DNA from: Candidatus Falkowbacteria bacterium S5_I03
GTDB lineage: Bacteria; Patescibacteriota; Patescibacteriia; Patescibacteriales; UBA12465
Direction: 5' to 3'
Length of the DNA: 64,000 bases
NCBI GenBank assembly: GCA_019248265.1
Contig: JAEHGX010000003.1
Span: 32,617 to 96,616, forward strand
Shown here: positions 6,658-52,012 of the stretch, piece by piece
How positions within the stretch are numbered: position 1 is the first letter of the stretch
Layout of the letters: each line of letters starts with the position of its first letter
The notes under the pieces: model-generated
Database searches by the model: none
Told to the model about the DNA's origin: nothing
What the model saw: only the letters and a program-made list of their open reading frames with translations
Position numbers and translations under genes: made by a program

Positions 6658-9600
6658 CTATCGACACTCTTCTTTATTTTTTAACATTATATCTTTTGCT
6701 TGCATAATATCTTCTTCGTTTATTGTTTTATATATTTTTTTATTAAGTTCAACTTCTTTATCTGGCGCTTTGTTAGATATATACTCTTTTCCATCTTTAT
6801 TAGCTTCCACAGCAGTTTTGAAGCTATCAAGCAAGTATTTATGCATATTTAACTTATCTTCTTTTGTAGATAATCCTAGAGCTTCTACAACCATGTCAAT
6901 TATCTTCTCAAACATACTTTTCTCAGCGCCAGTTATTAGATTACCTTCAACATCTATTTTCATTAAATCTTTAATTAGTTCTGGCTTACTTAATGCTTCA
7001 GCTAAGAATTCATCTACATCTTTAGCCCAATATGATTTATTAGTTGTAAACATCTCAGGATTAGCTTCAGCAGCTTGCTTAACCACTTCATATAGTCTAG
7101 TCATCTCTTCGCTATATGTTTTACCTTTTTCACTTCTCATATAGTTATAAACAGCAGCATGAACACTCTCATGTAACTTAGTTGTGAAATCTATATTTCT
7201 TTTATTTACTTCATCTATTATCATGTTTATTTGAGTTGATGCAGCCTTAATATCCAAAGCGCCAGTGTCTTGGTTTACTTGCTCAATTGATAACATTTTC
7301 ATCATCTCTTTATCATTTCTCAATCCATCAAAATCTGCTATCGTAACAACATTATCTTTCCAATCATAATTCCCAGCAATACCTTCACCAGTAAAGAAGT
7401 CATATGCTAATTGTTTACTGTAGTTCATTTCAAACTTAACATTATCTTGAATATACTCTAATAATTTAGCATTTTCTTTTTCAATATTCTCATCTTTTTT
7501 ATATTGTTCTAATACTTGCTGAACACTATTAACTTTTGTATCATTAACAGCATTTTCTTTTGCAACATATCCATTTAACTCTAATACTATCTCTAGCGCA
7601 TCAGTCAATGCACTTTTTGAACCATCATCTTGATCAACAAATCTCAATATTGCTTTAAACAGATTTTTAACATCTTCAAATAAACTTTTATTAGATGATA
7701 CACTTTCAAATCCAGATAAAAACTCTTGAAAAGATGGATTACTTATTGCTTCAGCTACAAATTCATATGCTTCACCTTTTTTATCAGATAATCCATATTG
7801 TTTTCTTTGCTCAACTGTAGAATTTTTATAAACATAATTTCTTAATTCATTAGCTTTTTTATCTAATGCTTTATTTTGTTTCATTGCATAAACAGTTATC
7901 GCATGAGCATATTCATGAAGCATAACTCTTTGTGTATTTTCAATTCCAAAATCTTTAGTTGATGGAAATGTTAATAGTTTTTTACCAGATGTATAAGCAC
8001 TATGCATACCATATCCATCAACTTCTTTATCTTGCTTAAACACAATTGTTATTGGATTGAACTTAATACCATTTTTACCAAACATTTCAAATAATCCATC
8101 TATATATTTAGATTCTTTAGCATCAATATTTTTACTTTTAGTCATATCTGCATATTCAGAAGCCAATTGTTTAAATTCTTCATATGTTTTAATTTCTTTT
8201 TGATATGGACTATTTTTAGATGCAGGATTTTTAAACTGAATTTTTCCATTTTTTAATCCATTTAGCATACTTGTTTCTGATACTATTTCAACAGGCTTAG
8301 TCTCTTTTTTTACAGATTCTTTCTTATCTGGCGCTTTGATAGTTAATTTAGTTCTATCTTCAGGCTCAACAACTTTACCGCCTTTAATTTCATACATACT
8401 TCCATCTAATCCAGCCATATGTCCAATCTTAGCATTAGATCCATATACTAATTTTCTACCGCTTTCAGCTACTTCATTTAACTCTCTCATTTCATCTAAT
8501 ATTGAATCAAATCTCTTAACTGGTTTGTTTTTTCCTGAACGCAAACCTTCAAGCTTATCTAAATCAACTCCAAGCTTTTTGGCATTATCTCTAACCCTTT
8601 CTAATGATTTTAAAATCTCTTTAGCTAAGCTATAATCTTTAGATATTTCATATACATCTTTGTTGTATTTAATAATTTCATCTTGAGCATTATTTATTCC
8701 AGTAAGCTTAGCATCATGCACTCCAAGAACTCCACCTTCTTCTAATGATTTAGTCATAGCTGAACCATCTATATAGTGAATTGGCACAACAGCTCCAGCA
8801 CTTATTGCAGCTTGAAACTCTCTAATCATTGACTGAACTGTTAATGTTTTTTGACCACCAAACTTATCAGGATTTACATGCGTCTGAGTAGGTCCATATC
8901 CACTTTTTGCATTTGTTAATCCAGTTGAGAATATAGCAACAGTTTCACCATCTTCCATATAGTTTTCACCAGCCAATGGAGCCTTAATCATAGGGAATAA
9001 TACTTTTAGTTCATCTAATATTTTATTTTCTTGATCAGCTGTCAATCCTTTTCCACCACTTACTTTTTCAACTCTAGCATCATATGCAACTTTCCAAGCT
9101 TGAAACATTATTTTGAATGAGTTATTGATTCTATTGTTAGCCTCTATAAGCTCTCCAAACTCTGCAGTTAATATCTGTTCAACATTTGATCCATATGTCA
9201 TCTCCACAATCTCTCTAAGTTTACCAGCTATAGCTACTTTACCAGATTTAACTTTCATTTCCTTACCAGTTTTATCTTTAACTGTTACATAATTATTTAT
9301 TTGAATATCTTCAAAAGCTGTATTTTTTAATGTTTCTTTAAATGCTTTAATCTCTTTCTCTTCTAACTCTTTACCATGAATGCTATTTATAAACTTATTA
9401 GCTTTCTTAACCGCTTCAGGAGACGAATCATCAAGCATCATCTTAGGTAATCCAGATATCATTTTATACCCAAGATGTCTTTTAATCGACTTAATAGCAG
9501 CTGCATATCCAAATGTCATAAACGGATCTTTAAACAATGACCTACCTTCGCTTGTAACAATATCTATAATCTCTGTTTTTAATCTATCTTCACCATCTTC

Positions 9601-12600
9601 ATCTTCTTTTGTACTACTATCTGGCGCTTCTGCAACTTCAACTTCTTTTTGATCTTTAATCTTAGGAAGAACTTCCTGTAAAGCTTTCCATCTTTCTTCG
9701 TTTTCTACTTCAACTTCAAAGCCAGTTACATCCATTCCTTGAGCCAATGTTCTATATGAATCTATTAATCTACCTTCTGATATCTCTTGCCCTGAGTTTG
9801 TAATAGCCATATAATTTTCATAATCTTTAATATCTGATGCATATTTTTGTTTATCTTCTTTAGACATTTTAGCTATTTGTTTTTTAGTTAGCTTTCCATC
9901 ATATAAAAACACTCCACCTTTAGATAACCATAATTTCATTTTTTCGAACGACATAATAGGTAATTGCAATAGTTTCAATATGAATCCACTTGTAATAGCA
10001 TCAAACTCTACAGATAATGATACTTCAAATGGTCTTTCACCATTTCCAGCTTTTTTATAAGCTCTAACTGCATTTAATCCTTGAAAGAAATGACCTAAGT
10101 GTTCAATCTCTACTTCATATTTTTTACCATCTTTTTTTATCTCAGCTTTATGCTTTTTATCTGTCAAAGCGCCAGTTAGTGTCTCTTCAGATTGTTCAAG
10201 AACAGCATCTGCAAAGTCATATATCTCTTGAGGTGTTTTCTTGTCTATTCCAAATCCAAACGCTTGAGCTATAGCAGTTTTAAAGTATTCTTGTTGTTTA
10301 TTTTTTTCAGCATCTGGACTATTGAAATCCATAATTTGTCTATGAGCTTTTAATGTAACAAGGAATCTATGTAACTTATCTGTCTGAGGATTTACAGTAA
10401 CTGAATCCATATAGAATCTTCCATTTTTACCAAAGAAATATTCAAAATACATCTCATTAGCTTCAGTAGCATCTTTACCAGCTACTTTATCATGCAATGA
10501 TATCAAATTATCATAACTTTCTTCAATCTCTCTATTTCTAGCTTCTGCACTTTCTCTATCATCGAATGCCATTTTCTCTAAATCATCTTCAGTTTTAAAT
10601 CCCATTATTGATAATGTTTGAGATCTATCTCTTTTCTCAAGCATCAAATCTACTGCTTCACTATTAACTTCATACGCTTCTTGTCTAATTTTATTTAATA
10701 CTTTAAAAGACTCATTAGCAGCTTTATTAACTTTACTATTTTTAACTTTATTATTCTTATCTTCTAATGTTTTAGGTTTTGTGAACATCGGACCTTTTGA
10801 ATTCTTCTCTAGCGCCAGTATTGATTGAACCATATCAACTTTTGCTAGAACTTCAGCTTTTAATACACTCATATCTGTTTTTTCTTTAACACTATATTTT
10901 TTACCAATAGCTGGTTTTTTTAATTGAACCATTGGAATTCTTTTAGATTTGCTGTCTTTATCTGTAGTTAAATCATTGAATTCTTTAGCTGCTTCTGCAT
11001 CTATTTCTTCTTGAGTTTTTGAGTTTTCATCTTCTATAAAATTACCATATTTATCTTTTTTTCTATTATCTATTCCAAGAGCTTTAGTATATGTATCAAT
11101 AGGAATAGTTGATTTGTTTAATGGCTCTATATATTCTTTTGCTTGCATATATAGCAATACCATTTGACCAGCATCTGATAACATCTTTGCATACAGTTCT
11201 GAATCTACACCTTCATATACTACTTTTTCACTACCATCTGCATTTTTACCAACTATCTTACTAGCTGGCGCTAATGATAAATTACTAAATGCAGCTTTAC
11301 CAAGATTATCAGCTATAAGCTTTTTAAATAAACCTTCATGTGCAAACGCTTTTTGAATATCAGGACTAACTTCATGTGGTTGTTTACCAAGCATAGCAGC
11401 AATAGCATCTTTATCATTATAAGCTAACTTAGAACTCATAAATGCATAATACTCATCTCCAGCTAACGCAAGAGCTACAGCTACATTTTCGTTAATTTCA
11501 GCCACACCATTGTCTGTCAACCTAAACAATAAACCTCTAAATAAACTATCTTTTGCTTTAAATTTTCTATTTGCTATATCATCATTAGGATCCGAAAGCA
11601 TCTTTTTGAATATGTCTACTGCATCGTCTTTGTATTTTAATATTTCTTTATTGTTAGTTATTTCACTTATAGGCATTCCTGATAATCTATTTTTTCCAAC
11701 TTTTGATGGTTGAACTATTTCGCTTACTCTAACTCTCTGGTATGCTCCACCATCTACTGAAACGGCATTCATATTTGATGATGTATTGTCTATAATATCT
11801 TTAATATAATCAGTACCAGTTAATTTATCTTGTAATAATTTAATCTCTTCTCTTATCTTGTCTCTATTTACTTTATTGCTTGTAGCTAATCTTTCAAACT
11901 GTGTAAACTTATCTTTCAGTTGAGAACCTGAATATTTCTTTCTAGCTTCATCACTATTTAAATATGCATATGCTCCTTTTTGAACTGCATAATCATATTT
12001 AATTTTATATTTTAATTCTTCAATTTTACTTTCTATAGCTTTTATTGCTTCAGATTTTTCAATTTTTTTACTTTCCAAAGCGCCAGTGTTAGAGTCTATA
12101 TCAAAATCTGAATATGTAATCTCAAAGTTGTCATTGAACTCTTTTATGTCATTCATTGTATCTTTATAGTTTATAGCACCACTTATATCTGTATCTCCAT
12201 AATCTATATCAGCATATGTTATTTCACCATTATCAGCAGGTTCTTTGTATGTTATAGGTTCCTTCTCTGCCGGCGCTTTGTTGATATCCTTAGGTTTCTC
12301 TTTTGGTAACATATCAAAATCAATATCACTTATATTCGAATCACCTATATTTTCATCGGACTTAATTTCTTCATCTGAATATGTTATTTTTTCATCTTTG
12401 TATGTAATATCTTCTAAACTTTTATCTACTGGCGCTTTATAAGTTATATCCTCTGGTGGCTTCTTGTCAACAGGAGGTTTTTTATCTTCTGGTTTTTTAA
12501 CTGTATTATCAATGTCAATATCATCTTTTTTATCAAGACTTGCTAATGTTATTCTATTTTTTTTATCTTGCTTAATTAATGTTTTAATTTCTTCAGGTAA

Positions 12601-15462
12601 ACCTTTAAGTTCATTATCATTAATAGTTTTACCAGTGTAGCTTGGCAACACTTTTTTAATAGCAACACTTGCTTTGTTTATTTCATTTAAAAGATTTTTT
12701 CTTTCATTTATTTTTGTAGATGATGATTCACTTGATCTTTTAAATCCTTCAATCTTTTGAGAAACTTCTTTAGCTGTTAATTCTGCAGCCTTAGCCATAG
12801 CGCCAGCTTCTTTTGCTACAGCACTTCTTATGCCGTATATTCCACCAGTTTTAACATCTTTGCCTAAGTTTTCATAAACATTTCTATAGTTTATTTCAAA
12901 TGTTTTACCTGATGGATATGTAAATTTCTCAGAATCAGCATTTATTCCTTTTATGTTTCCTTTAACTTTGCCGCCATTTAACTTGATATTTTTTCTTACT
13001 TCGGCTTCAACTTTAGCTATTGCTTTATCTAATGCTGATAATTTATTTTGTTGTGATTCTACAAACTTATCCATTTTTGATAGATTTTCATCTATCTTTT
13101 CTAAATTTTCTTCATTTATAGCATCTTCAACATTTTGTCTATATGTTAGATATCCTCTAGCGCCAGTTGATACTTCTTTTGATACATCGTTAATACTTTT
13201 TCTAATTTCTGATACAGCTACATATTCATCTTTGATGTCTTGTAGGGTTTCTTCATCTAATCCAGCATCTTTACCAGCTTTCATATAGTTTTTAACTATT
13301 AATTCGTCATTGAAATCTATCTCTCCAACAGCATTTCCTTCTTCATCTGTAATATCAAGCATTCTCTTGAACTTCTCTTTATTCTGCGGATCTGAAGCCA
13401 AGCTTTGCATTCTTGATGTGTTACCATTTTTAAGAACATCATCTCTTCTAGAAGCCATTAATGCAGTCAAGGCTCTATTGTTTGCTAAGACCTTACCGTA
13501 GATGATATCCTGTGTTTCTTCATCTATATTTTTACTTTTTGATGCATATAGTGATGCTTCTTTGATATCATCAAGCATTGAATCAACTTCTGAATCGGTT
13601 ATGTCTCCAGCAGTTATTCTAGCAGTAATATTATCCATTTTTGTATTATAGTTTGCAACATTTACTTTGGCAGCTTCAGCGTCTTCTTTAGCTACTATTT
13701 CATTTGGATTATCCATAACTATGTCTGATGTCTTATTCTTAATCTCTTTAGCTTTATTAACAGCTGAATCTTTTAATCCACCAAACTTTTCACCAATACT
13801 TTTTGAAGATTCAAATACAGCTTTAGGTAATATCTCAATTGCTGCAGCACCAGTTACGTCTCCAGCTACCCCAGCACCATATGCCTGGAACATCTTTCTA
13901 AATGTTTCATCTTCCAATAATTTTTCTTGCTCATCTGTTCCATATAATGCACCAAATTCTTCAATACCAGTCTGAATTGCTTCTGTAGTACCTCCAATAG
14001 CAACACCTTTTCCGATAGCTTCTCCAGTTTTTTTAGCAATAGTTTTCAATACTGTTTCAGTTGCTTCTTTGTTTTCACTTTTTAAAGCGCCAGATATTAA
14101 GTTATTTATAAACTGTGGTTTTGTAAATATTACTTTATCTGCAACTTTTTCTACTACAGCTGCTCCTAAAGCTAGTGGCATAATAGCCATTCTTTCTGCA
14201 TTTGATATATTTTCAACGCCACCAACAACTTTTGCTCTTTCCTCAAGTATATCATTTTGGAATATTGATGCAACAGCTATATAGCCTTTTTTAGACATTG
14301 ATGCAGCTATATATGCAGCACTTTCAGCTAAAAAAGGTAATCCAGCATTATAAACTCCTTCTATAACAGAAGAAGCCATATCTACAGCATCTCCTGAATC
14401 ATAAGCTTCTCCTAGCCTATTCATAGCTTTTTCTGTAGCTTCACCTTTGTATCCATATGTTTCTTTTTCTTTGTATTTGTCTAATAATTTAAAGTCCATA
14501 TTTTCATCAAACCAAGCTTTACTATTAGGCATATCTTCTTTCATGTATTTTACTGCTTCTTTTTCTGGCATATCTTTTATGCCTTTTGTTAGCTCAAGAG
14601 CTATTCTTCCAGCAGCATCAACAACAGCATCTCCGACATTTGCAGCAAATGATCCACCAGCATATTGTAATGCATCTGTTATTGTATCTTCTCCTGGCAT
14701 CTGTATGTTTTTACCATCAGTTGTTCCGTATTTTGAAGATATATTCTCCAACGCATCTTTAGCAGCAACTTGTTCAAATTTAGGCTTCTCATATCCTATA
14801 GACTCACCAATACCTTCCTTTGTATCTTTATTTCTAACATCTGTTAATGGTCTTCCAAAATGACCAAATTTTCCAGTATTTAATCTTTCAACTTCTATAT
14901 TTAATGGATATTCTTTGCTTCCAAGCTCAAGAGGTGTATTTTCATTTATAAAGTCTAATGGTCCAGGAGTCCATTCAGCTTTTTCACCAGGAATCATATT
15001 ATATAGCGCCATAAGCTTTTGCTCTGTTCCTTTTTGATATATCATATCATCTGTAACTTCATTTGGGTTTAAACCTAATTCTGATGCTAATCTAGCTCTT
15101 TGCATATCAAATTTTTTCTTTCCAGATTCAGTATTTTTATAATTATCACCAGGATGAGGAACTTCATATGCATCAAATCCTTCAATTCTATCTTCTGTTT
15201 CTTTTCCAGTTAAATCATATCTTTTACCAGTTAATTTATCTACTCCACCAAGACCACCAGTTGTTCCAATGAATTGAGGGCTATCTGCATCAGTCATACT
15301 CTCAAGCATAGTTGGAGTCCATACATTTAGGTTGTTTTGTGTTAAGTTTGTTTGTTGATTTTGTTGTTTAGTATCAGAATATCCAGAAAGTCTATCCTGT
15401 TTTTCTATTGTTTTATCACTTAGCGCCAGTATTTTATCTTCAAGTATTCCCATTGGGCACAT
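6658..15462 (-). CDS. N4-like virion-packaged RNA polymerase (vRNAP), 2,934 aa
   Basis: The T7-like motifs occur in the correct order. KNGRFY matches the xxGRxY motif. Motif A is VEFDAITSGF (D1821, 10000-10002). Motif B is RSLFKDPFMTFGYAA, which has exact R-x3-K-x7-Y spacing (K1978, 9529-9531). Motif C is GVLGVHDAKL (D2250, 8713-8715). The true start is probably the second ATG at 15453, because AAGGA lies 8 nt upstream of it. Confidence 0.8.
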   Translation of the reverse strand: MCPMGILEDKILALSDKTIEKQDRLSGYSDTKQQNQQTNLTQNNLNVWTPTMLESMTDADSPQFIGTTGGLGGVDKLTGKRYDLTGKETEDRIEGFDAYEVPHPGDNYKNTESGKKKFDMQRARLASELGLNPNEVTDDMIYQKGTEQKLMALYNMIPGEKAEWTPGPLDFINENTPLELGSKEYPLNIEVERLNTGKFGHFGRPLTDVRNKDTKEGIGESIGYEKPKFEQVAAKDALENISSKYGTTDGKNIQMPGEDTITDALQYAGGSFAANVGDAVVDAAGRIALELTKGIKDMPEKEAVKYMKEDMPNSKAWFDENMDFKLLDKYKEKETYGYKGEATEKAMNRLGEAYDSGDAVDMASSVIEGVYNAGLPFLAESAAYIAASMSKKGYIAVASIFQNDILEERAKVVGGVENISNAERMAIMPLALGAAVVEKVADKVIFTKPQFINNLISGALKSENKEATETVLKTIAKKTGEAIGKGVAIGGTTEAIQTGIEEFGALYGTDEQEKLLEDETFRKMFQAYGAGVAGDVTGAAAIEILPKAVFESSKSIGEKFGGLKDSAVNKAKEIKNKTSDIVMDNPNEIVAKEDAEAAKVNVANYNTKMDNITARITAGDITDSEVDSMLDDIKEASLYASKSKNIDEETQDIIYGKVLANNRALTALMASRRDDVLKNGNTSRMQSLASDPQNKEKFKRMLDITDEEGNAVGEIDFNDELIVKNYMKAGKDAGLDEETLQDIKDEYVAVSEIRKSINDVSKEVSTGARGYLTYRQNVEDAINEENLEKIDENLSKMDKFVESQQNKLSALDKAIAKVEAEVRKNIKLNGGKVKGNIKGINADSEKFTYPSGKTFEINYRNVYENLGKDVKTGGIYGIRSAVAKEAGAMAKAAELTAKEVSQKIEGFKRSSESSSTKINERKNLLNEINKASVAIKKVLPSYTGKTINDNELKGLPEEIKTLIKQDKKNRITLASLDKKDDIDIDNTVKKPEDKKPPVDKKPPEDITYKAPVDKSLEDITYKDEKITYSDEEIKSDENIGDSNISDIDFDMLPKEKPKDINKAPAEKEPITYKEPADNGEITYADIDYGDTDISGAINYKDTMNDIKEFNDNFEITYSDFDIDSNTGALESKKIEKSEAIKAIESKIEELKYKIKYDYAVQKGAYAYLNSDEARKKYSGSQLKDKFTQFERLATSNKVNRDKIREEIKLLQDKLTGTDYIKDIIDNTSSNMNAVSVDGGAYQRVRVSEIVQPSKVGKNRLSGMPISEITNNKEILKYKDDAVDIFKKMLSDPNDDIANRKFKAKDSLFRGLLFRLTDNGVAEINENVAVALALAGDEYYAFMSSKLAYNDKDAIAAMLGKQPHEVSPDIQKAFAHEGLFKKLIADNLGKAAFSNLSLAPASKIVGKNADGSEKVVYEGVDSELYAKMLSDAGQMVLLYMQAKEYIEPLNKSTIPIDTYTKALGIDNRKKDKYGNFIEDENSKTQEEIDAEAAKEFNDLTTDKDSKSKRIPMVQLKKPAIGKKYSVKEKTDMSVLKAEVLAKVDMVQSILALEKNSKGPMFTKPKTLEDKNNKVKNSKVNKAANESFKVLNKIRQEAYEVNSEAVDLMLEKRDRSQTLSIMGFKTEDDLEKMAFDDRESAEARNREIEESYDNLISLHDKVAGKDATEANEMYFEYFFGKNGRFYMDSVTVNPQTDKLHRFLVTLKAHRQIMDFNSPDAEKNKQQEYFKTAIAQAFGFGIDKKTPQEIYDFADAVLEQSEETLTGALTDKKHKAEIKKDGKKYEVEIEHLGHFFQGLNAVRAYKKAGNGERPFEVSLSVEFDAITSGFILKLLQLPIMSFEKMKLWLSKGGVFLYDGKLTKKQIAKMSKEDKQKYASDIKDYENYMAITNSGQEISEGRLIDSYRTLAQGMDVTGFEVEVENEERWKALQEVLPKIKDQKEVEVAEAPDSSTKEDEDGEDRLKTEIIDIVTSEGRSLFKDPFMTFGYAAAIKSIKRHLGYKMISGLPKMMLDDSSPEAVKKANKFINSIHGKELEEKEIKAFKETLKNTAFEDIQINNYVTVKDKTGKEMKVKSGKVAIAGKLREIVEMTYGSNVEQILTAEFGELIEANNRINNSFKIMFQAWKVAYDARVEKVSGGKGLTADQENKILDELKVLFPMIKAPLAGENYMEDGETVAIFSTGLTNAKSGYGPTQTHVNPDKFGGQKTLTVQSMIREFQAAISAGAVVPIHYIDGSAMTKSLEEGGVLGVHDAKLTGINNAQDEIIKYNKDVYEISKDYSLAKEILKSLERVRDNAKKLGVDLDKLEGLRSGKNKPVKRFDSILDEMRELNEVAESGRKLVYGSNAKIGHMAGLDGSMYEIKGGKVVEPEDRTKLTIKAPDKKESVKKETKPVEIVSETSMLNGLKNGKIQFKNPASKNSPYQKEIKTYEEFKQLASEYADMTKSKNIDAKESKYIDGLFEMFGKNGIKFNPITIVFKQDKEVDGYGMHSAYTSGKKLLTFPSTKDFGIENTQRVMLHEYAHAITVYAMKQNKALDKKANELRNYVYKNSTVEQRKQYGLSDKKGEAYEFVAEAISNPSFQEFLSGFESVSSNKSLFEDVKNLFKAILRFVDQDDGSKSALTDALEIVLELNGYVAKENAVNDTKVNSVQQVLEQYKKDENIEKENAKLLEYIQDNVKFEMNYSKQLAYDFFTGEGIAGNYDWKDNVVTIADFDGLRNDKEMMKMLSIEQVNQDTGALDIKAASTQINMIIDEVNKRNIDFTTKLHESVHAAVYNYMRSEKGKTYSEEMTRLYEVVKQAAEANPEMFTTNKSYWAKDVDEFLAEALSKPELIKDLMKIDVEGNLITGAEKSMFEKIIDMVVEALGLSTKEDKLNMHKYLLDSFKTAVEANKDGKEYISNKAPDKEVELNKKIYKTINEEDIMQAKDIMLKNKEECR

Positions 15463-19942: not shown

Positions 19943-20371
19943 TTATTTCTCGTATCTTTTTTTAACTTTATCAATCCATTCTCTAACTTTATATTTAACT
20001 ATTACACCATTTCTGCACACTGAACCAGGGAGAACCATATCTTTATGTAATGCTATATATATCATCTCTCTATCTCCAGCTTGTTCAATGCAATATTTGA
20101 ACATTTCGTATATACATTGACTAGCTCTTTTTGATTTTTCAACATAGAAAGATGTAAGCAATAATTTATCATCAAAGTCTTCATGGAAACAGAATCCTAT
20201 TATTCTATTTTCATCTACAACTTTTATTCCATCTTTTTTCTTGAGATCCCTTTCGAATCTTATTGCTAATCCTCTAGCGCCAGATGAAGAGCCAGTTATT
20301 GACTCATATTCATCTACCACATAGTTTACGCATATAGCAATATCATCTGGCGCTATTTTATATAATTTCAT
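19943..20371 (-). CDS. hypothetical 142-aa protein, weak GNAT-like features (copy 1)
   Basis: ORF with a beta-strand/helix segment LTSFYVEKSKRASQCIYEMFKYCIEQAG, loosely like GNAT motif A. The functional call has low confidence. Confidence 0.45.
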   Translation of the reverse strand: MKLYKIAPDDIAICVNYVVDEYESITGSSSGARGLAIRFERDLKKKDGIKVVDENRIIGFCFHEDFDDKLLLTSFYVEKSKRASQCIYEMFKYCIEQAGDREMIYIALHKDMVLPGSVCRNGVIVKYKVREWIDKVKKRYEK

Positions 20372-20372
20372 T

Positions 20373-21107
20373 CTACATTCCAGATGTTAGTGTACTATAA
20401 AGCTCAGAAACTTTATCTCCAGTAATAATAGCTGGCTTAGTAGTTAACATCCCAGAACTAAACATTAATCCCCATGCATTTATTTGAGAATCGAATAGTT
20501 TTTGGTATTTATTATCATCAAATCCTCTTTCTTGTCTTGCATACAATGATGTTTGTGCTTCTATATTTAATCTTTGTTTAGCAGATGTTAACTTATCATC
20601 TTCTATCTTGCTAATAGCTGCACTTCCTTGTTCCACTTGTTTTTTAACAAGTTTCATACTTTCCCATACTGCACCTTCATCCATTAATGCTATGACATTT
20701 CCGCTAGAATCTTTTGTTGGAGCACCATATTCTCTTAATAACTTAGCTTGTTGTAGCTGTGTAGTAGCTAAACTTGTTTTGATATCTTCATCTAGTTTAT
20801 CTTTTTGAGCAGCTAAGATATCAAGTTGTAATTCAAGTTCTTCTTTTTTAAGAATTAGCTCTTTCTCTTGGGTAGCCCACTGTAATCCAATACTCATACT
20901 TGAAGCAGTTATATCTCCAACCATTTTACTTATTGTTTCTGCTATAACAGCAGATCTTGCTTCATCAGTTAATGAACCTCTATCTAATAAATCTATAAGA
21001 GTCTCTTTAGCTCTTATGTATATTCCTTCTTTTCCTAATGCTTCTTTTACTAAAGCTCTCTGTTTCTTTATCACATCAAGATTTGTTTCAATTTGTATTA
21101 TTGCCAT
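20373..21107 (-). CDS. hypothetical 244-aa coiled-coil structural-module protein (copy 1)
   Basis: ORF lies 1 nt from the downstream gene. No motif recognised. Confidence 0.55.
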   Translation of the reverse strand: MAIIQIETNLDVIKKQRALVKEALGKEGIYIRAKETLIDLLDRGSLTDEARSAVIAETISKMVGDITASSMSIGLQWATQEKELILKKEELELQLDILAAQKDKLDEDIKTSLATTQLQQAKLLREYGAPTKDSSGNVIALMDEGAVWESMKLVKKQVEQGSAAISKIEDDKLTSAKQRLNIEAQTSLYARQERGFDDNKYQKLFDSQINAWGLMFSSGMLTTKPAIITGDKVSELYSTLTSGM

Positions 21108-21344: not shown

Positions 21345-21773
21345 TTATTTCTCGTATCTTTTTTTAACTTTATCAATCCATTCTCTAACTTTATATTTAA
21401 CTATTACACCATTTCTGCACACTGAACCAGGGAGAACCATATCTTTATGTAATGCTATATATATCATCTCTCTATCTCCAGCTTGTTCAATGCAATATTT
21501 GAACATTTCGTATATACATTGACTAGCTCTTTTTGATTTTTCAACATAGAAAGATGTAAGCAATAATTTATCATCAAAGTCTTCATGGAAACAGAATCCT
21601 ATTATTCTATTTTCATCTACAACTTTTATTCCATCTTTTTTCTTGAGATCCCTTTCGAATCTTATTGCTAATCCTCTAGCGCCAGATGAAGAGCCAGTTA
21701 TTGACTCATATTCATCTACCACATAGTTTACGCATATAGCAATATCATCTGGCGCTATTTTATATAATTTCAT
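21345..21773 (-). CDS. hypothetical 142-aa protein (copy 2, identical to 19943..20371)
   Basis: Identical translation in the ORF track. Confidence 0.45.
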   Translation of the reverse strand: MKLYKIAPDDIAICVNYVVDEYESITGSSSGARGLAIRFERDLKKKDGIKVVDENRIIGFCFHEDFDDKLLLTSFYVEKSKRASQCIYEMFKYCIEQAGDREMIYIALHKDMVLPGSVCRNGVIVKYKVREWIDKVKKRYEK

Positions 21774-21774
21774 T

Positions 21775-22509
21775 CTACATTCCAGATGTTAGTGTACTAT
21801 AAAGCTCAGAAACTTTATCTCCAGTAATAATAGCTGGCTTAGTAGTTAACATCCCAGAACTAAACATTAATCCCCATGCATTTATTTGAGAATCGAATAG
21901 TTTTTGGTATTTATTATCATCAAATCCTCTTTCTTGTCTTGCATACAATGATGTTTGTGCTTCTATATTTAATCTTTGTTTAGCAGATGTTAACTTATCA
22001 TCTTCTATCTTGCTAATAGCTGCACTTCCTTGTTCCACTTGTTTTTTAACAAGTTTCATACTTTCCCATACTGCACCTTCATCCATTAATGCTATGACAT
22101 TTCCGCTAGAATCTTTTGTTGGAGCACCATATTCTCTTAATAACTTAGCTTGTTGTAGCTGTGTAGTAGCTAAACTTGTTTTGATATCTTCATCTAGTTT
22201 ATCTTTTTGAGCAGCTAAGATATCAAGTTGTAATTCAAGTTCTTCTTTTTTAAGAATTAGCTCTTTCTCTTGGGTAGCCCACTGTAATCCAATACTCATA
22301 CTTGAAGCAGTTATATCTCCAACCATTTTACTTATTGTTTCTGCTATAACAGCAGATCTTGCTTCATCAGTTAATGAACCTCTATCTAATAAATCTATAA
22401 GAGTCTCTTTAGCTCTTATGTATATTCCTTCTTTTCCTAATGCTTCTTTTACTAAAGCTCTCTGTTTCTTTATCACATCAAGATTTGTTTCAATTTGTAT
22501 TATTGCCAT
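21775..22509 (-). CDS. hypothetical 244-aa protein (copy 2, identical to 20373..21107)
   Basis: Identical translation in the ORF track. Confidence 0.55.
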   Translation of the reverse strand: MAIIQIETNLDVIKKQRALVKEALGKEGIYIRAKETLIDLLDRGSLTDEARSAVIAETISKMVGDITASSMSIGLQWATQEKELILKKEELELQLDILAAQKDKLDEDIKTSLATTQLQQAKLLREYGAPTKDSSGNVIALMDEGAVWESMKLVKKQVEQGSAAISKIEDDKLTSAKQRLNIEAQTSLYARQERGFDDNKYQKLFDSQINAWGLMFSSGMLTTKPAIITGDKVSELYSTLTSGM

Positions 22510-32956: not shown

Positions 32957-33697
32957 TTATATTGTTCTCCATTTTTTATTGAAATCTTTGTTGTTATGAT
33001 ACCAAATAATATTTTCTTGAAGTTCTTCTGAGTAATATCTATCAACATCTGTTCTGCATGCATGAACTTGTTGATCTTCGTTGTCCCACTCTGAGAAATC
33101 ATGAAATATTATTTTGTTTTCATATCTAGATACAATTTCTGGAAAATTAACTAATGCTTTAGTATCACCACTAATAATGATGCTATTTTTATTGTCTGAA
33201 ACTATTAACCCATAACACTCAACATGATGACTTGTTTTTATTGAGTCTAGCTTTAATCCGTTATATATAATTCCATTTGATAACTTATGCAAATCAATAT
33301 ACTTTTTCATATCTTTTAGATACAAGTTAAGTTCATCTGCAACTTCATTAAATGATAATATGTTTAATTTAATATTATGCATGAAATACATATAAAATAT
33401 TAATGTTTTTAATGAACCAACATGATCATCATCCATATGTGATATGTAAACATTTCTTAGCATTTTTATATCTATTTCATCGTGATAATCATTTAACTTT
33501 CTCAATTCTGCATAAACAGAATATCCACAATCAAACAGAATATATTCTGAACCTTCTTCAATTAAAAATGAGCTATTTACTGATTCAAAATCAAAAGCTC
33601 CACCATTACCAATTTGTTTTACTCTCATACTATTCCTATTTATTTTAAGATGCGCATATTGTACTTTGTGATTTATTAATTTTAGCTTTTGCTTCAT
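32957..33697 (-). CDS. metallo-beta-lactamase-fold-like hydrolase
   Basis: FDCGYSVY...YISHMDDDHVGSL is a variant of the HxHxDH motif (the second His is replaced). It abuts the amidase gene. Confidence 0.4.
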   Translation of the reverse strand: MKQKLKLINHKVQYAHLKINRNSMRVKQIGNGGAFDFESVNSSFLIEEGSEYILFDCGYSVYAELRKLNDYHDEIDIKMLRNVYISHMDDDHVGSLKTLIFYMYFMHNIKLNILSFNEVADELNLYLKDMKKYIDLHKLSNGIIYNGLKLDSIKTSHHVECYGLIVSDNKNSIIISGDTKALVNFPEIVSRYENKIIFHDFSEWDNEDQQVHACRTDVDRYYSEELQENIIWYHNNKDFNKKWRTI

Positions 33698-33744
33698 TTT
33701 CTAAAGCGCCAGGTTGAAAGTAAACCATGACGCTATGATTTTAT

Positions 33745-34464
33745 TTATTTAGTGAACTTTAGATTTGCACATTCTGCTAATGTCATTCTCATGAATACCG
33801 ATAATTCTTTTCCTTCTGTTTTTAAAGTCTGGTAATACCATTCTTTACCAGCTTGTGTTTTTATTTGTGCATCTGGATTCCATCCATGATCATCATTTCT
33901 AGTAGCATTCTCTTCTAATCTTTTAAGATATGCATATATTGCTGATATCTTATTAGTTTGAGTTTCTTTGCCATTTGAACCAACTATTGTTACGCATCCA
34001 CCTTGAAACAATGGTTCTATGAACTCATTTCTTTCTGTATATATGTACCTAGCATTTTTTAATAGTGTATGGCTAACGCTCCATGCCTTTGCAAGACCAA
34101 TTATACTTTTAGCTTTATTCTTAGGATTGAATGTTTCCTTACAAGCACTTATAAGCTTCTGAGTTGGAGAAAGATTTCTTCTTGTATTAAATGATTTTAC
34201 AACAACCATAACATCTTCTTCTGTAAGATCATCATCAAGCTCTTTTGCCTTAATTCTTACTCCTGTAGCTAAGCATGCTTTTTGTCTACATCTACCATCT
34301 ACTATTTTATTTCTCCATAATATAACTGGCTCTCTTAATCCATTTTCTCTTATATCTTCTGTTAGAGCTGCTTGCTCAGCCATGTTAGCCATAGGAACTA
34401 TTCCTGCTAGTTCTTCGTTTACTTCAAACGCTTCACCTTCTCTTAGCTCAATATATCTTGTCAT
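33745..34464 (-). CDS. ParB-like nuclease-domain protein
   Basis: NGLREPVILWRNKIVDGRCRQKA matches the ParB/Srx N-terminal motif (P..V......DG..R..A). Confidence 0.6.
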   Translation of the reverse strand: MTRYIELREGEAFEVNEELAGIVPMANMAEQAALTEDIRENGLREPVILWRNKIVDGRCRQKACLATGVRIKAKELDDDLTEEDVMVVVKSFNTRRNLSPTQKLISACKETFNPKNKAKSIIGLAKAWSVSHTLLKNARYIYTERNEFIEPLFQGGCVTIVGSNGKETQTNKISAIYAYLKRLEENATRNDDHGWNPDAQIKTQAGKEWYYQTLKTEGKELSVFMRMTLAECANLKFTK

Positions 34465-34703
34465 TTCTTGTCCTTTTTTATTATATTTGTTTAACGATGT
34501 AATAATATATGATTTATACTTAATTCTGGCTTAATTTTGTCTGATTTTTTATTTAAATCAGACATTTGTCTGATTTTTTTTATCAAAATAGGACAAATTT
34601 TTCCGATTGGCTATTTTAATTTTTACTACATGTTTTATTTATTATAATGTTTTGTCCGATTGAGTATTACTTGTCATACATTATGTTTATCATTTTGTCA
34701 ATT

Positions 34704-34868
34704 TTGGTACCAATGGTACCATTGGTACCGTTTTATTTTTGTACCATTGGTACATAATTCGATACCATTTTTTTTGGTATCAATGATACCGTTTTGTTTG
34801 GTATCGAATTATTTTGACACCATCTTGATTTGGTGTCATTGACACCGTTCTATTTTGGTGTCAAAATT
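34704..34868. repeat. array of co-varying 6-bp inverted repeats (three families)
   Basis: GGTACC occurs at 34706, 34715 and 34724, plus GTACCattGGTAC at 34741-34753. GATACC/GGTATC pairs lie at 34761/34776 and 34785/34800. GACACC/GGTGTC pairs lie at 34816/34832 and 34841/34857. Loops are 9-10 nt and T-rich. Confidence 0.85.
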
Positions 34869-35082
34869 TTCACAGACTTAGAGCTGACTTAAGAAAGTCT
34901 TTTTGTTGTCCGATATTTTTTAATGAGTATGCCATGAAATCGAACATCTGTATTTTTGATTAAAATATTTATTTATTGATGTTTTTTGAAAAAAGGACAC
35001 ATATGTCTTTTTTTTATATATATTAATATATATTATATGGATAGTCTTTTTTTATTTTAATAAACCAAAAAAACCCAAACCC

Positions 35083-35174
35083 CTACAACCACCGCTCGGA
35101 AACGCAGCACGGGAAATTGCGTAGCGTAGCGTAGCAATTTGACTAGTGCAAGTGCAACGAGAAGGTGGTTGTAG
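35083..35174. other. GC-rich structured element A (candidate ncRNA or terminator)
   Basis: The 11-bp outer stem is CTACAACCACC / GGTGGTTGTAG. The inner stem AAATTGC/GCAATTT encloses GTAGC x3. It shares CACCGCTC..GAAA with elements B and C. On the minus strand it is followed by GGGTTTGGGTTTTTTTGG. Confidence 0.5.
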
Positions 35175-35277
35175 CATCAGCACGAAGTAGCGAAAAAAAG
35201 AAACATTGGATTTATTCTCAATAGAGCCAGTTAGGGATGGTACCTATGACACTATTATCTGGCGCTAGAGATAAATT

Positions 35278-35784
35278 TTAATTAATCTTTTTAGAACATG
35301 CTTCTTTATACATAAGCTCTTCTCTTTCCCAGTTATCTTGAGATACTACTAATCTTGGATTTATTATGTAGCATCCTCTTTTGTATCTAACAACAAGATC
35401 TTTTTCTCTTAGTGTTTTGTATGCTATTTTTATGTATTTCTTTTCTGTCTCAGTAAGAGTTGAATTATCAATATGTGTTATATTTGATTTTTTATAACCA
35501 AACTCATCAACATTATTTCTATTTTTCATTAACAATTTAAACATAAAACCTTCAGGTTTTGTCATATTTAAAAGCTCTTCTGTGTAATCCATACTGTGTG
35601 CCCTACTTTCTTTATTTTTGTTTCCACTTCCTACCATTATGAACGATGGCTTCATTTTTCCATCATTTTCAACTACTAGCTTCTTTCCAGCAGGAAGAAC
35701 TATTTGATGAGTCTTCATCATTTCATCTGATTCTAAGATTCTATCCTGTATAATCTTATTATCAATTGAGGCAATCTTCTCCAT
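35278..35784 (-). CDS. hypothetical 168-aa protein with a putative DNA-binding domain shared with ORF 121..780
   Basis: KKYIKIAYKTLREKDLVVRYKRGCYIINPRLVV aligns by eye with KKGMAKSYKNLVDMNILIRIKRNVYMINPNFII of the HNH fusion protein. Confidence 0.5.
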   Translation of the reverse strand: MEKIASIDNKIIQDRILESDEMMKTHQIVLPAGKKLVVENDGKMKPSFIMVGSGNKNKESRAHSMDYTEELLNMTKPEGFMFKLLMKNRNNVDEFGYKKSNITHIDNSTLTETEKKYIKIAYKTLREKDLVVRYKRGCYIINPRLVVSQDNWEREELMYKEACSKKIN

Positions 35785-36054
35785 TGTCTCTCCTTTTTAT
35801 TTATTTAATCATCAAACTTTCTTATTGTACACAATCTAAGCTTAAAGATAGGTGAACGAATCACCCCCTTATCTCACTCGATAAGGTACTAAATCACCCC
35901 CTTATCTATTTAAATAAACATCGAGTTTATCGAGACTATTTGATTTTTCCTTCTATAAGAATTATATAGGAAGCTTTTCTTAGCGCCAGCTAGAGATGCT
36001 GATTGTATTTTCGTTTTGATTTTTTTGTCCAGACTGGACGGTTTTATACTCATG

Positions 36055-36146
36055 TAAGCCAGCTTTGTGCACCGCTCTCGAAAATTTTTTACTACGCACT
36101 CCGTGCTTCGTAAAATAATTTTCTCGTTTGCGCCCATGCTGGCTTA
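36055..36146. other. GC-rich structured element B (candidate ncRNA or DNA cruciform)
   Basis: The 9-bp outer stem is TAAGCCAGC / GCTGGCTTA. Conserved blocks are TGCACCGCTCTC (36068-36079) and TCGTTTGCGC (36124-36133). Inner stems are GAAAATT/AATTTTC, TTTTAC/GTAAAA and GCAC-tcc-GTGC. Confidence 0.6.
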
Positions 36147-36169
36147 ATGGTTAAGGATTATGAAGATGT

Positions 36170-36769
36170 TTATGCTTCTGTTATTTTAGTTGATGTATTT
36201 ATATCTATTGTTGTTAATGCTATCTGGCGCTTATCATAGTTTCTAAATGATTCAAATACTGATTTATCATATGCAGATATGTTTACTTCATTATTTTGAT
36301 TTCCACCAACACATAATAGCTTACCATCTTTTCGTTTACCAACAACGATACACACATGTCCGCCACCTACCCTTGATTTAACAGCTATTGAACCAAGACT
36401 TGGCTCATTTACTGCATAACCAAAGTTAGACCACTCCTTGGCTCTCTCAGGTACCTTTATACCATGATCTATTCCAGCTTGCTTCATCACCCATGATATA
36501 AACGAGGCACACCAGGAAACTTCATCCTCGGTATATTTACCAGCTGTTGTTGCATGATACTCCAATACTCTGGCGCTATGTAGCTTACCAGGTACTTCAT
36601 ATATCCCAACCTCTTTTAGTGCTATCTTTACATACCCTGGCGCTTCTAATGCATCTATAGCTGCTTTAGTTTCACCACCTAAATCTCCATCTGCACCAAA
36701 CTTTGGAAGTTTAGCGCCTACCTGTAATAGATAATTCTGTAATTGTTTAACTGTGTTTTTATTTCTCAT
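36170..36769 (-). CDS. endolysin: peptidoglycan-binding domain plus Cys-His (CHAP/NlpC-P60-like, TIGR02594-type) peptidase
   Basis: The N-terminal LQNYLLQVGAKLPKFGADGDLGGETKAAIDA resembles PG_binding_1. SWCASFISWV...GGHVCIVVG supplies the catalytic Cys and His context. Its start overlaps the holin stop (TAATG). Confidence 0.65.
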   Translation of the reverse strand: MRNKNTVKQLQNYLLQVGAKLPKFGADGDLGGETKAAIDALEAPGYVKIALKEVGIYEVPGKLHSARVLEYHATTAGKYTEDEVSWCASFISWVMKQAGIDHGIKVPERAKEWSNFGYAVNEPSLGSIAVKSRVGGGHVCIVVGKRKDGKLLCVGGNQNNEVNISAYDKSVFESFRNYDKRQIALTTIDINTSTKITEA

Positions 36770-51138: not shown

Positions 51139-51888
51139 TTATTGTTTACCTATGTATTTAGCAAGTATTCTTTTTGCTATTTCAATTGAATCATCTATTC
51201 CGCATTTGTTTACAAGTTCAGTCATTGAATCATTTATGAATTCATTTTCTGATTCTGTATATTTAAAGTCTTTAGGTTTTCCAAGCCTAGACATTCTATC
51301 TTCTTTTAAATATGAATTTATTGTTCTAAGATTATTTGTATAATTTGGCATTATTGAACTACCTATATTAAACTTGTTTCCATTAAACAAAAATTCTATT
51401 AGGTCCGGCGCTCTTTCAGATAATGTTTTTACTTCACTTAGATTAGTTCTTGTTACTCCAAATTTTTCAGCAGCTGTTCCTTGGCTAACTTTTGTTGATT
51501 CATTTAATGATTGCTCAACATAATAATTGTAAGCCATAATTGCTCTTTGTGTTGGAGTCTGGTGTCTTCTTGTTTCAAGGCTTAGCACTTGACTCTCTAT
51601 GTCTGATTCAGACAGTCCTTCTTCAACAACTGATTTTATTGTTGTTTCACATAATTCAACAGCTGCTCTTAATCTATGTCTTCCGTCATACATATCATAT
51701 TCTATCCCATCAGGTCTATCAATATCTATCTTTAATAGTTTAACTGGCTCAAGCTGACCATTTGTTCTTATATCCAATTTAAATGCTTCATAGCATGCAT
51801 CATCCATCATTGGTGTAAGCTTTGCATATTTATGTATTCTTATTTTTGATATATCAATTTGCTGTACATTTATAGTATTTTTATTCAT
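51139..51888 (-). CDS. ParB-like nuclease-domain protein (second copy of the fold)
   Basis: NGQLEPVKLL...YDMYDGRHRLRAAVE matches the ParB/Srx motif. I prefer the start at ATG 51888 (AAGGA upstream) over the track start at 52005. Confidence 0.55.
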   Translation of the reverse strand: MNKNTINVQQIDISKIRIHKYAKLTPMMDDACYEAFKLDIRTNGQLEPVKLLKIDIDRPDGIEYDMYDGRHRLRAAVELCETTIKSVVEEGLSESDIESQVLSLETRRHQTPTQRAIMAYNYYVEQSLNESTKVSQGTAAEKFGVTRTNLSEVKTLSERAPDLIEFLFNGNKFNIGSSIMPNYTNNLRTINSYLKEDRMSRLGKPKDFKYTESENEFINDSMTELVNKCGIDDSIEIAKRILAKYIGKQ

Positions 51889-51906
51889 ATCTATTCCTTG
51901 CTTATT

Positions 51907-52012
51907 TGTTCCCATATTATATCTTATTTTAGGAACAATGTCAATATTAATATGGTGTTCCTGCGGGAACACTTTTACGACACTCGATTTATATGTTGTT
52001 CCCAAAGGAACA
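51907..52012. promoter_or_regulatory. three TGTTCC...GGAACA inverted repeats (operator-like)
   Basis: The repeats are TTGTTCC (51907)/GGAACAA (51932), GTGTTCC-tgcg-GGAACAC (51955-51972), and TTGTTCC-caaa-GGAACA (51996-52012). They lie upstream of the ParB-like gene. Confidence 0.5.

Follow-up and report, generated by a model that had tools for sequence, protein, structure and literature searches.

The window analysed here is a stretch of 64,000 nucleotides (contig JAEHGX010000003.1 of assembly GCA_019248265.1, positions 32,617 to 96,616) deposited under the name Candidatus Falkowbacteria bacterium S5_I03, and the subject of this report is an array of short palindromes at positions 34704-34868 within it. 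Judged by its genes, the window is an uncultivated N4-like phage. The portal protein is of the SU10/N4 type, with 34% identity to the portals of Salmonella N4-like phages, and the virion RNA polymerase is split over the adjacent open reading frames (ORFs) 6658-15462 (2934 amino acids) and 2289-6629 (1446 amino acids), which match successive parts of the profile phrog_2206 with E-values of 5e-83 and 9e-151, respectively. Genes are read from the minus strand between 2.3 and 52 kb, comprising the late block, and from the plus strand beyond about 52.5 kb; synteny with N4 puts the genome ends near 52 kb. The array occupies a gene-free gap of 813 bp that belongs to the late block by synteny, and no plus-strand genes lie downstream of the array. 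In the direction of transcription the gap is followed by the genes for a ParB-like protein of 239 amino acids, a metallo-hydrolase, an amidase and the portal protein. The array is located 240 bp upstream of the ParB-like gene and stands about 200 bp from a GC-rich structure named element A. An earlier reading of the sequence alone had described this setting in the same terms, and the product of the ParB-like gene does possess a true ParB fold.

On re-reading, the letters of the array agree with the earlier transcription. The array is organized as follows.

34704-34868: whole array, 13 half-sites TGGTRYC/GRYACCA in three units, A with a GTAC core, B with GATAC and C with GACAC
34706-34729: first part of unit A, a 24-bp perfect palindrome GGTACCAATGGTACCATTGGTACC consisting of two overlapping 15-mers and abutting the promoter-like flank
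34740-34754: second part of unit A, the palindrome TGTACC-ATT-GGTACA
34754-34812: unit B, a 59-bp quasi-palindrome with outer arms ATAATTCGATACCA/TGGTATCGAATTAT of 14 bp, 100% complementary
34811-34867: unit C, a 57-bp quasi-palindrome with outer arms ATTTTGACACCA/TGGTGTCAAAAT of 12 bp, 100% complementary

Eleven of the half-sites are exact matches to GGTRYC/GRYACC: GGTACC at 34706, 34715 and 34724, GATACC/GGTATC at 34761, 34776, 34785 and 34800, and GACACC/GGTGTC at 34816, 34832, 34841 and 34857. The remaining two are nearly exact (tGTACC at 34740 and GGTACa at 34749). Unit B holds an inner core, GGTATC-AAT-GATACC at 34776-34790, between T-rich bubbles of 8-9 nucleotides, and unit C holds GGTGTC-ATT-GACACC at 34832-34846. 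The subunits of B and C are also direct repeats of 24 and 25 bp that are 90% and 80% alike, while GGTACCAATGGTACCATTGGTACC can equally be described as 2.8 copies of the 9-bp direct repeat TGGTACCAW (Tandem Repeats Finder period 9). The spacers are T-rich on the plus strand and A-rich on the gene-sense strand.

The half-sites can be paired in three ways. The sequence-only reading had joined them into 6-bp stems closing T-rich loops of 9-10 nucleotides, and the loop consensus GTTYTRTTT that it gave for the stretch following the core hairpins is correct. Alternatively, 6-bp stems may close loops of 3 nucleotides, as in GGTATC-AAT-GATACC, GGTGTC-ATT-GACACC, two overlapping copies of GGTACC-AWT-GGTACC, and TGTACC-ATT-GGTACA; five perfect stems of 6-7 bp with such loops occur within 34705-34846. 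The third arrangement is that of nested quasi-palindromes, and the minimum-energy fold of the DNA takes this form, with units B and C each drawn into one quasi-palindrome of 57-59 bp. In this fold a perfect outer stem of 12-14 bp is followed by a symmetric 8x8 or 9x9 bubble, T-rich on the plus strand, and an inner 6-bp hairpin. Taken individually and as single-stranded DNA, hairpins of either simple pairing are weak, and the pairings differ little in energy (-4.1 to -5.0 versus -2.7 to -5.1 kcal/mol).

The array is a real, non-random feature. Its 13 half-sites fall within 157 bp, against 17 half-site positions in the rest of the 64 kb. The 15-mer GGTRYC-N3-GRYACC has four exact matches in the window, all within the array, where shuffled sequences lead to an expectation of 0.17; allowing one mismatch adds a single further match, at 35239, and the total of five is reached by none of 100 shuffles. 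Apart from matches at chance level, the shorter cores of 13 and 11 nucleotides are likewise limited to the gap that contains the array. Folded as DNA, the two strands give -41.0 and -41.6 kcal/mol against about -14 and -15 for shuffles (z of -8.7 and -9.1), and folding as RNA gives a z of -9.8 on both strands. Dispersed palindromic repeats of the REP/BIME or MITE kind were considered and rejected, as the motif is restricted to one gap of the window. A 60-amino-acid ORF with a TTG start (34660-34842) was rejected as coding, since it has neither a ribosome-binding site nor an ATG start and the arrays of relatives are unrelated there. A search of IMG/VR with the strict pattern returned 0 matches, as did a search with the conserved flank, and the 11 loci obtained there with a relaxed pattern were all either collagen-like GGT-ACC-AAT (Gly-Thr-Asn) coding repeats or lone chance sites. 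No DNA similarity between the window and known phages was found. To our knowledge, the operator consensuses of Fis, CRP/FNR, NtcA, LexA, Fur, sigma-54 and the lambda operators offer no convincing match to the array.

The sequence-only reading had proposed a search of related phages, and close relatives do carry the same array in altered forms. The gap was recovered from about 20 metagenome contigs (given L numbers below), mostly from sewage or wastewater, whose ParB-like proteins are 79-100% identical to that of the window. Among the closest relatives, element A and the 230 bp beside the ParB-like start are nearly invariant, and the sequence in between is mosaic. An A+B+C array as in the window is present in L004, L005, L006, L008, L013, L014 and L016, with one 24-bp subunit of unit B missing from L005, L006 and L008. 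Short arrays have AC cores only (L056), AT cores only (L010 and L011) or GT cores only (L007), and all palindromes within one short-type genome are of one type; L010 contains three 15-mers with spacers of 18 and 9 nucleotides. L012 has a decayed AC form. In L015, L058, L059 and L060 the array is replaced by an unrelated cassette with other palindromes, and none was found upstream of 25 distant ParB-like homologues. Sequence variants include TGTATC-AAT-GGTACA in L005, L006, L008, L013 and L014, which creates a T.G wobble on the gene-sense strand, and the pair-breaking forms GGAGTC (L005) and TGTGTC (L013 and L014) in unit C. The array and its flank also move together as a module, which in L013 stands before an inserted ParB-N/T5orf172 gene; in L014 an insert of 330 bp lies between the module and the ParB-like gene. 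The array is lineage-specific, dispensable and structurally variable, with no sequence relative found outside its own phage lineage, and it can be assigned to a broad and known class, that of palindromic cis-sites clustered in the regulatory regions of phages.

Several further observations concern these contigs. The gene inserted between the module and the ParB-like gene encodes 297 amino acids and occurs in L013 (1141-2034), L018, L019 and L061; the N-terminal part of its product appears ParB-like by eye, and the C-terminus matches T5orf172/MUG113 (GIY-YIG-like). It is likely a mobile gene of the homing-endonuclease type that adds to the local mosaicism. The alternative cassette (L015, L058, L059 and L060, also inside L014; equivalent to 34700-35070 of the window) bears the palindromes AATGTGAAC-A-GTTCACATT and AATGCGAC...GTCGCATT, together with a promoter-like TATAAT that is followed about 110 nucleotides later by a hairpin and a T9 run, and it may encode a small RNA. 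A scan of a genome collection gave as its sole match a 1.3-kb contig of a metagenome-assembled genome (MAG) labelled Candidatus Shapirobacteria, which is almost certainly a mis-binned phage fragment. Two contigs identical to this region of the phage, L004 and L016 (NCBI GCA_019248155.1 and a sister assembly), have been deposited in MAGs, L016 under the title Candidatus Shapirobacteria, and their placement is most likely a binning artefact. A physical genome end or terminal repeat in the gap was rejected: many metagenome contigs break there, but the break points are scattered, which fits strain heterogeneity.

When 16 distinct 15-mers from the window and its relatives are aligned, the arm-to-arm covariation first seen in the window proves real and spans orthologous arrays of related genomes. 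Across the alignment 94.8% of cells are paired, and double-sided changes account for 12 cells in 3 of the 6 pairs; none of 500 shuffles reaches the observed score, and slid controls collapse. Pair 4 alternates between A-T and G-C, pair 5 between T-A and C-G with two T.G intermediates, and pair 1 between G-C and T-A. The orthologous palindromes of the short-type arrays in L056, L007 and L010, which have both flanks in common, differ by matched two-arm changes. The outer positions GGT..C/G..ACC and the A that follows are constant in every copy and strain, variation being confined to positions 4 (R) and 5 (Y). The unit retained throughout is a 15-17-bp palindrome, GGTRYC-A-W-T-GRYACC, that is symmetric through its "loop". 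The pairing with loops of 9-10 nucleotides does not represent this conserved unit; the module kept constant among the relatives is the 15-mer with its 3-nucleotide spacer. That spacer is A-W-T in 16 of 16 instances, with A19 and T21 invariant; at its centre, 10 instances have A and 6 have T, and close strains can differ in this base (AAT in WIN_A2 versus ATT in L014_A2). As every spacer reads A-W-T, the duplex forms a perfect 7-1-7 palindrome, extended to 8-1-8 where the flanking T and A are present. The flip of the central base is a signature that fits the two-fold symmetry of a duplex and speaks against a strand-specific hairpin.

The sequence-only reading had taken the compensatory changes to argue for a selected secondary structure over protein half-sites. 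That conclusion is not entailed, given that the spacer is symmetric, the events are few and template switching suffices. About two double transitions starting from GGTACC can generate every array type, which implies few independent events, and half-way forms are present as polymorphisms, namely GGTATC-AAT-GGTACC (L010) and TGTATC-AAT-GGTACA (L005, L013 and L014). Template switching at quasi-palindromes makes arms identical without selection (PMC7202029) and is an established mutational route (PMC7202029, PMC5941160). It is possible, if somewhat unlikely, that the array has no dedicated function at all and consists of hypermutable short palindromes in tolerant spacer DNA, in which case the covariation would be mutational and not selected. 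The array would then have originated by slippage of the 9-bp unit, with its self-complementary GGTACC, and of the 24-25-bp units, and template switching would keep the symmetry. A-type 15-mers arise trivially from tandem TGGTACCAW, the B and C subunits are direct repeats, the difference between L005 and the window amounts to exactly one 24-bp subunit, and the half-way forms just named (L010; L005, L013 and L014) are the expected intermediates. The closest strains differ by 5 substitutions in the array, 3 of them at stem positions where they break or wobble a pair, and the density of change in the array (5/168) is like that of neighbouring non-coding DNA (8/180). Degeneration of the array in L012, and its absence from the four relatives with the alternative cassette and from the 25 distant ones, are also in keeping with a lack of function. 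Arms made identical by mutation, one-mismatch intermediates and a spacer that flips between AAT and ATT all resemble quasi-palindromic template-switch hotspots and hairpin-loop inversions of non-coding DNA (PMC7202029). Those phenomena are mutational and do not represent functional elements; in the array, some constraint is suggested by the outer bases, which are constant, and by the fixed junction with the promoter-like flank. In addition, several diverged lineages keep at least two perfect palindromes, always including one at the identical flank junction; the outer half-site positions are invariant in all copies; array and flank travel as a module in L013 and L014; and the very possibility of decay, as in L012, implies maintenance in the other lineages. 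Should the array prove functionless, it would still be a clean natural case of covariation produced by template switching and a caution for covariation-based structure calls on short DNA palindromes.

Further interpretation depends on what surrounds the array in the gap and at its borders.

33745-34464, minus strand: ParB-like gene, 239 amino acids, phrog_4715, downstream of the gap
34537-34914: dispersed TTGTCYGAT/ATCRGACAA boxes at 34537, 34566, 34599, 34652 and 34906, on either side of the array
34555-34576: palindrome AAATCAGAC-ATTT-GTCTGATTT, 91-112 bp upstream of the ParB-like start and separate from the array
34673-34701, minus strand: promoter-like flank, by sequence reading TTGACA (34701-34696), 17 nucleotides, TATGAC (34678-34673)
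34960-35070: very AT-rich stretch, with an A-run/hairpin/T-run element at 34988-35016 and a minus-strand TTAAAA-17-TATAAT at 35060-35032
35076-35190, minus strand: GC-rich element A, closed by a 12-bp stem CTACAACCACC...GGTGGTTGTAG with GGGTTTGGGTTTTTTT after it, outside the array
35239-35253: hybrid site GGTACC-TAT-GACACT, one A-type and one C-type arm, not self-complementary, adjoining a AGCGCCAG word
35278-35784, minus strand: orphan gene of 168 amino acids upstream of the gap, possibly a winged-helix protein (RepL-like)

The last palindrome of the array ends 4 nucleotides upstream of the -35 hexamer TTGACA. The relatives' versions of this promoter-like flank read TTAACA with TATAAC or TACAAC, and a flank is present wherever the array is present. 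The junction ACC-AAAATTRACA (ACC-AAAATTRACAAAATG or ACC-AAAATTRACAAAATGATAAACATAATG) is the same in all array-bearing relatives, while the recombination boundary with the array-less cassette falls at the -10-like hexamer (TGTAYRAC). Copy number and type vary around the fixed ACC-AAAATTRACAAAATG junction; a palindrome, or what is left of one, occurs there in each relative with an array, and apart from L012 it is either perfect or deviates by a single wobble. From its sequence we infer that the flank may act as a promoter.

The reading favoured here, though tentatively, is that the array is a double-stranded DNA element, an operator- or iteron-like set of symmetric sites for a dimeric DNA-binding protein that abuts the -35 of a late promoter. 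The perfect palindromes of 15-17 bp, (T)GGTRYC-A-W-T-GRYACC(A), would each be bound by a dimer of a sequence-specific protein that would have to tolerate either purine (R) at half-site position 4 and either pyrimidine (Y) at position 5. As the last site lies only 4 nucleotides from the -35, occupancy of the sites would tune the adjacent promoter of the late genes for the ParB-like protein, hydrolase, amidase and portal, or else nucleate a larger nucleoprotein complex. The ParB-fold proteins of the phage and the RepL-like winged-helix protein of 168 amino acids may be considered candidate binders. The array could grow, shrink and switch type by slippage between its 9-bp and 24-25-bp direct repeats, with the identity of the arms upheld largely by intra-palindrome template switching. 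Apart from the persistence of a palindrome at the fixed junction, several features are consistent with this proposal. The symmetry of the spacer leaves the duplex without a strand-specific feature, the outer bases of the half-sites do not vary, and the directional T-rich tail of the window copies is not kept in L010 and L007, so that the palindrome alone is common to all. The site is unique in the 64 kb, as would be the case for a dedicated cis-site. Other perfect palindromes are found at promoters of this phage, namely AAATCAGAC-ATTT-GTCTGATTT and a trio of TGTTCC/GGAACA repeats described below. The hybrid site at 35239-35253, which does not pair with itself, suggests that the half-sites matter in themselves.

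A number of points weigh against protein binding. No candidate binder co-varies with the array; such co-variation of array type with either the ParB-like or the 168-amino-acid protein was looked for among the relatives and rejected. One and the same ParB-like protein, P0001, stands beside an A+B+C array in L005 and a GT-only array in L007. The 168-amino-acid protein in L012 is 96% identical and accompanies a degenerate array, while L010 has a good array and a different upstream gene. A protein tolerant of R and Y at the variable positions needs no matching arms, yet 94.8% of the cells pair and 12 changes are double-sided. The restriction of each short-type genome to one palindrome type would have to be accounted for in addition, for example by template switching or conversion. 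Perfect palindromes are unusual among operators. With respect to the promoter, TATGAC lacks the T at position 6 and the flank was not listed by a promoter scanner, which leaves it a consensus match only. Finally, the array is missing from L015, L058, L059, L060 and the 25 distant relatives, and any function would have to be dispensable. If the sites are indeed protein-bound, the array would represent an unrecognised regulatory switch before the portal and lysis late operon of a sewage-borne N4-like lineage, and its AC, AT and GT cores would form a natural specificity-variant series for the study of operator-binder co-evolution.

Among the possible binders, the ParB-like protein deserves separate consideration, since the sequence-only reading had suggested a centromere-like site. 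Its AlphaFold2 (AF2) model has a predicted local distance difference test (pLDDT) score of 86.6 and includes an N-terminal domain with the GxxRxxA motif (G57-R-C-R-Q-K-A63) and a helix-turn-helix (HTH). Foldseek matches it to pNOB8 ParB, Bacillus subtilis ParB-CDP, Noc, KorB and Spo0J with a probability of 1.0 and E-values down to 2e-5 over 200-250 columns. The sites of ParB-family proteins (parS, NBS and KorB OB) are perfect palindromes of 13-16 bp that are often clustered near the gene, and in the parS sites of P1 and P7 two bases of the hexamer box set species specificity. The array resembles parS, Noc NBS, KorB OB and F sopC in its clustered perfect palindromes of 13-17 bp beside a ParB-fold gene, 240 bp upstream in this case, and in a dinucleotide within the hexamer that varies between relatives. 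It is unlike them in that its variation does not track that of the ParB-like protein, and most of the family is without it. The idea that the array is a parS- or centromere-like loading site of the adjacent 239-amino-acid dimer is weakened further by a different palindrome that the family conserves 90-140 bp upstream of the start, represented in the window by 34555-34576. This palindrome is unchanged in close relatives and is a probable family-conserved operator of the ParB-like gene, and the TTGTCYGAT/ATCRGACAA boxes that flank the array are half-sites of the same operator family. In L012, L014 and L015 these boxes are replaced by GGGACAA/TTGTCCC together with a ParB variant of 82-84% identity. 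Intact ParB genes also occur where the array does not, in the four relatives with the alternative cassette. The array is likewise missing from all 25 distant loci, at least 9 of which show a single palindrome equally far upstream of the start (such as AATTAGACA-tttt-TGTCTAATT in L036). A loading role for the array itself is thus very unlikely.

The upstream palindromes of the distant loci L032, L033, L036, L038, L039, L046, L047, L048 and L055 are lineage-specific in sequence (GACA/TGTC, CGCA/TGCG, GGGAA/TTCCC and others), and the palindrome upstream of ParB-like genes is probably a co-evolving autoregulatory operator. No ParA was seen among about 30 ORFs scanned, the window as a whole not having been searched systematically for it. 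The window does contain a second ParB-like gene at 51139-52012, 30% identical to the first, with a likely ATG start near 51887 (51139-51887). Upstream of it are three TGTTCC/GGAACA inverted repeats, one of which brackets a perfect TTGACA-17-TATAAT promoter sequence at the boundary of the late and early regions.

The other neighbour, of 168 amino acids, belongs to a family with nine homologues, 5 of the 9 members showing subthreshold matches to RepL (PF05732; best E 0.0013). AF2 models the protein poorly (pLDDT 54), and the top Foldseek matches, MarR, MexR and TubR, are not significant. PDB sequence and profile searches with the 239- and 168-amino-acid neighbours were uninformative, and no HTH was found in the small neighbouring ORFs.

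The presence of a virion RNA polymerase brings into consideration a structural role for the palindromes. The early promoters of N4 and LUZ7 consist of DNA hairpins in which a stem of at least 4-7 bp closes a 3-nucleotide loop (PMC4496689, PMC9163698). LUZ7 has tandem hairpin promoters, with start sites 13-14 nucleotides from the hairpin centre, and its early and middle transcripts run antisense through late genes. In N4 promoters the key contact is the loop centre of the template strand, a purine at -11, and the hairpins sit at the genome end that is injected first. The array could similarly act when extruded as hairpins or cruciforms in supercoiled or single-stranded DNA, serving as an origin, a primosome-loading site or a set of tandem hairpin promoters; in the promoter version a T7-like phage RNA polymerase would fire on the plus (early/middle) strand and might prime replication beside the AT-rich stretch. 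Taken as a whole, such a structure-dependent role is rather unlikely. It would account for complementarity that is kept by double changes, with the one-sided departures that still pair being T.G on one strand only, and for nested quasi-palindromes of 57-59 bp whose perfect outer stems reach beyond the half-site motif. Like the promoters of N4 and LUZ7, the array has short stems with 3-nucleotide loops, conserved and variable stem positions and tandem copies in an N4-like phage (PMC4496689, PMC9163698), and in the window all 3 core hairpins are followed on the plus strand by G-TTYT and then a purine 13 nucleotides from the centre (34735 A, 34796 G and 34852 A).

The differences are considerable, however. 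The array lies in the late block, by synteny not at the first-injected end, and neither the early and middle region at 52-64 kb nor any other part of the window contains the motif. With no copy of the 15-, 13- or 11-mer at 52-64 kb, the motif cannot be the recognition class of the virion RNA polymerase or of RNAPII, and that candidate was ruled out. The loop of the array is self-complementary (A..T), with A or T at its centre and hence no strand specificity there, whereas the N4-type loop is purine-rich (GNA). The plus-strand tail, T-tract and purine included, is not conserved in L010 and L007, single hairpins reach only -4 to -5 kcal/mol, and the array faces no plus-strand genes.

In form the array also recalls known replication origins. 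Ori-lambda has four dyad-symmetric O-binding sites of about 19 bp with A-tract spacers beside an AT-rich region, and the primary origin of T7 has the tandem phage RNA polymerase promoters 1.1A and 1.1B followed by an AT-rich region. Shared with ori-lambda are several dyad sites with a period of 24-25 bp, A/T-tract spacers, a nearby AT-rich stretch of about 110 bp, lineage-specific site sequences and a RepL-like gene next door. Unlike ori-lambda, the array does not lie inside an initiator gene, it has only a weakly RepL-like neighbour, and it is dispensable in some strains, which is odd for a sole origin in view of the L015-type cassette. At least three repeated sites do stand beside an AT-rich region, as in iteron origins, but the likeness is one of form only, and the RepL-like neighbour, with its subthreshold match and poor model, does not strictly co-occur with the array. 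The AT-rich stretch of 34960-35070 is deleted in the short-type relatives L007, L010, L012 and L056. The AT skew at four-fold degenerate sites differs between the left and right of the gap (p = 0.026), a weak signal that is confounded by capsid genes, and GC skew at such sites is too sparse for use. As in the T7 origin, tandem promoter-like elements, putative in this case, for a T7-family RNA polymerase face an AT-rich stretch, whereas the array motif is not reused elsewhere in this genome. It is distinctly unlikely that the palindromes form, outside the early region and facing the AT-rich stretch, a tandem series of sites at which a T7-family RNA polymerase of the phage or a primosome enters by recognition of their structure. 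Such sites would prime replication or drive Watson-strand transcription across the late genes, with selection keeping the arms complementary while co-circulating strains come to differ in sequence. Were the palindromes to act as extruded hairpins, the DNA-hairpin logic of the N4 early promoters would apply to sites of another kind as well, either an origin or a promoter for antisense transcription; the literature searched yielded no report of a replication origin in N4-like phages. The analyses presented here argue against the most exciting readings of the array, while the N4-like setting keeps a hairpin function conceivable.

Lastly, the array may act as RNA, either on the gene-sense strand as a multi-hairpin 5' leader, processing or stability element or small RNA, or on the plus strand as tandem intrinsic terminators of antisense transcripts. 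The folding of the RNA is markedly stronger than that of shuffles on both strands, as given above, and both wobble variants would be U.G pairs on the gene-sense strand, although two cases are too few for a strand assignment. LUZ7 offers a precedent in Watson-strand transcripts that cross late genes and in small RNAs from a late intergenic gap. On the plus strand, 7 terminator-like matches are found against 0.4 expected; these rest on short stems and a T-rich strand without plus-strand genes, and the T-richness is a general property of the late block (AT skew about -0.2). The stems are short (6-7 bp) with a GC content of about 50%, L010 and L007 do not retain the U-rich tails, and a symmetric A-W-T spacer with a strand-neutral centre is unexpected for an RNA element. 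The earlier suggestion of a multi-hairpin non-coding RNA found no support in Rfam 15, which has no match at E <= 1 across 33500-36500, or in ARAGORN, which reports no tRNA or tmRNA. Overall, an RNA function for the array is highly improbable. Element A, which is nearly invariant in all close relatives whichever cassette comes after it, is a candidate for a terminator-bearing small RNA; it likewise lacks any match to Rfam or to tRNAs.

Several minor observations were made elsewhere in the window. The 8-mer AGCGCCAG/CTGGCGCT, one copy of which adjoins the hybrid site, occurs 84 times in the 64 kb against 0.19 expected. Its copies are split 45 and 39 between the strands, lie in both genic and intergenic sequence at a median spacing of 547 bp, and share only A/T-rich flanks (examples are at 113, 915, 35259, 52079, 53028, 53152 and 53542). 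It looks like a word of the Chi, uptake, nick or modification type. The 1399-amino-acid ORF at 44800-48999 matches the terminase large subunit only at residues 629-955, with a weak match to a helicase-like family upstream of those, and it may be a fusion or contain an intein. An apparent tandem duplication of about 1.4 kb (19943-21107 and 21345-22509) comprises two successive pairs of ORFs encoding 142 and 244 amino acids, and identical hairpins lie 1402 bp apart within it, at 20635/22037 and 20938/22340.

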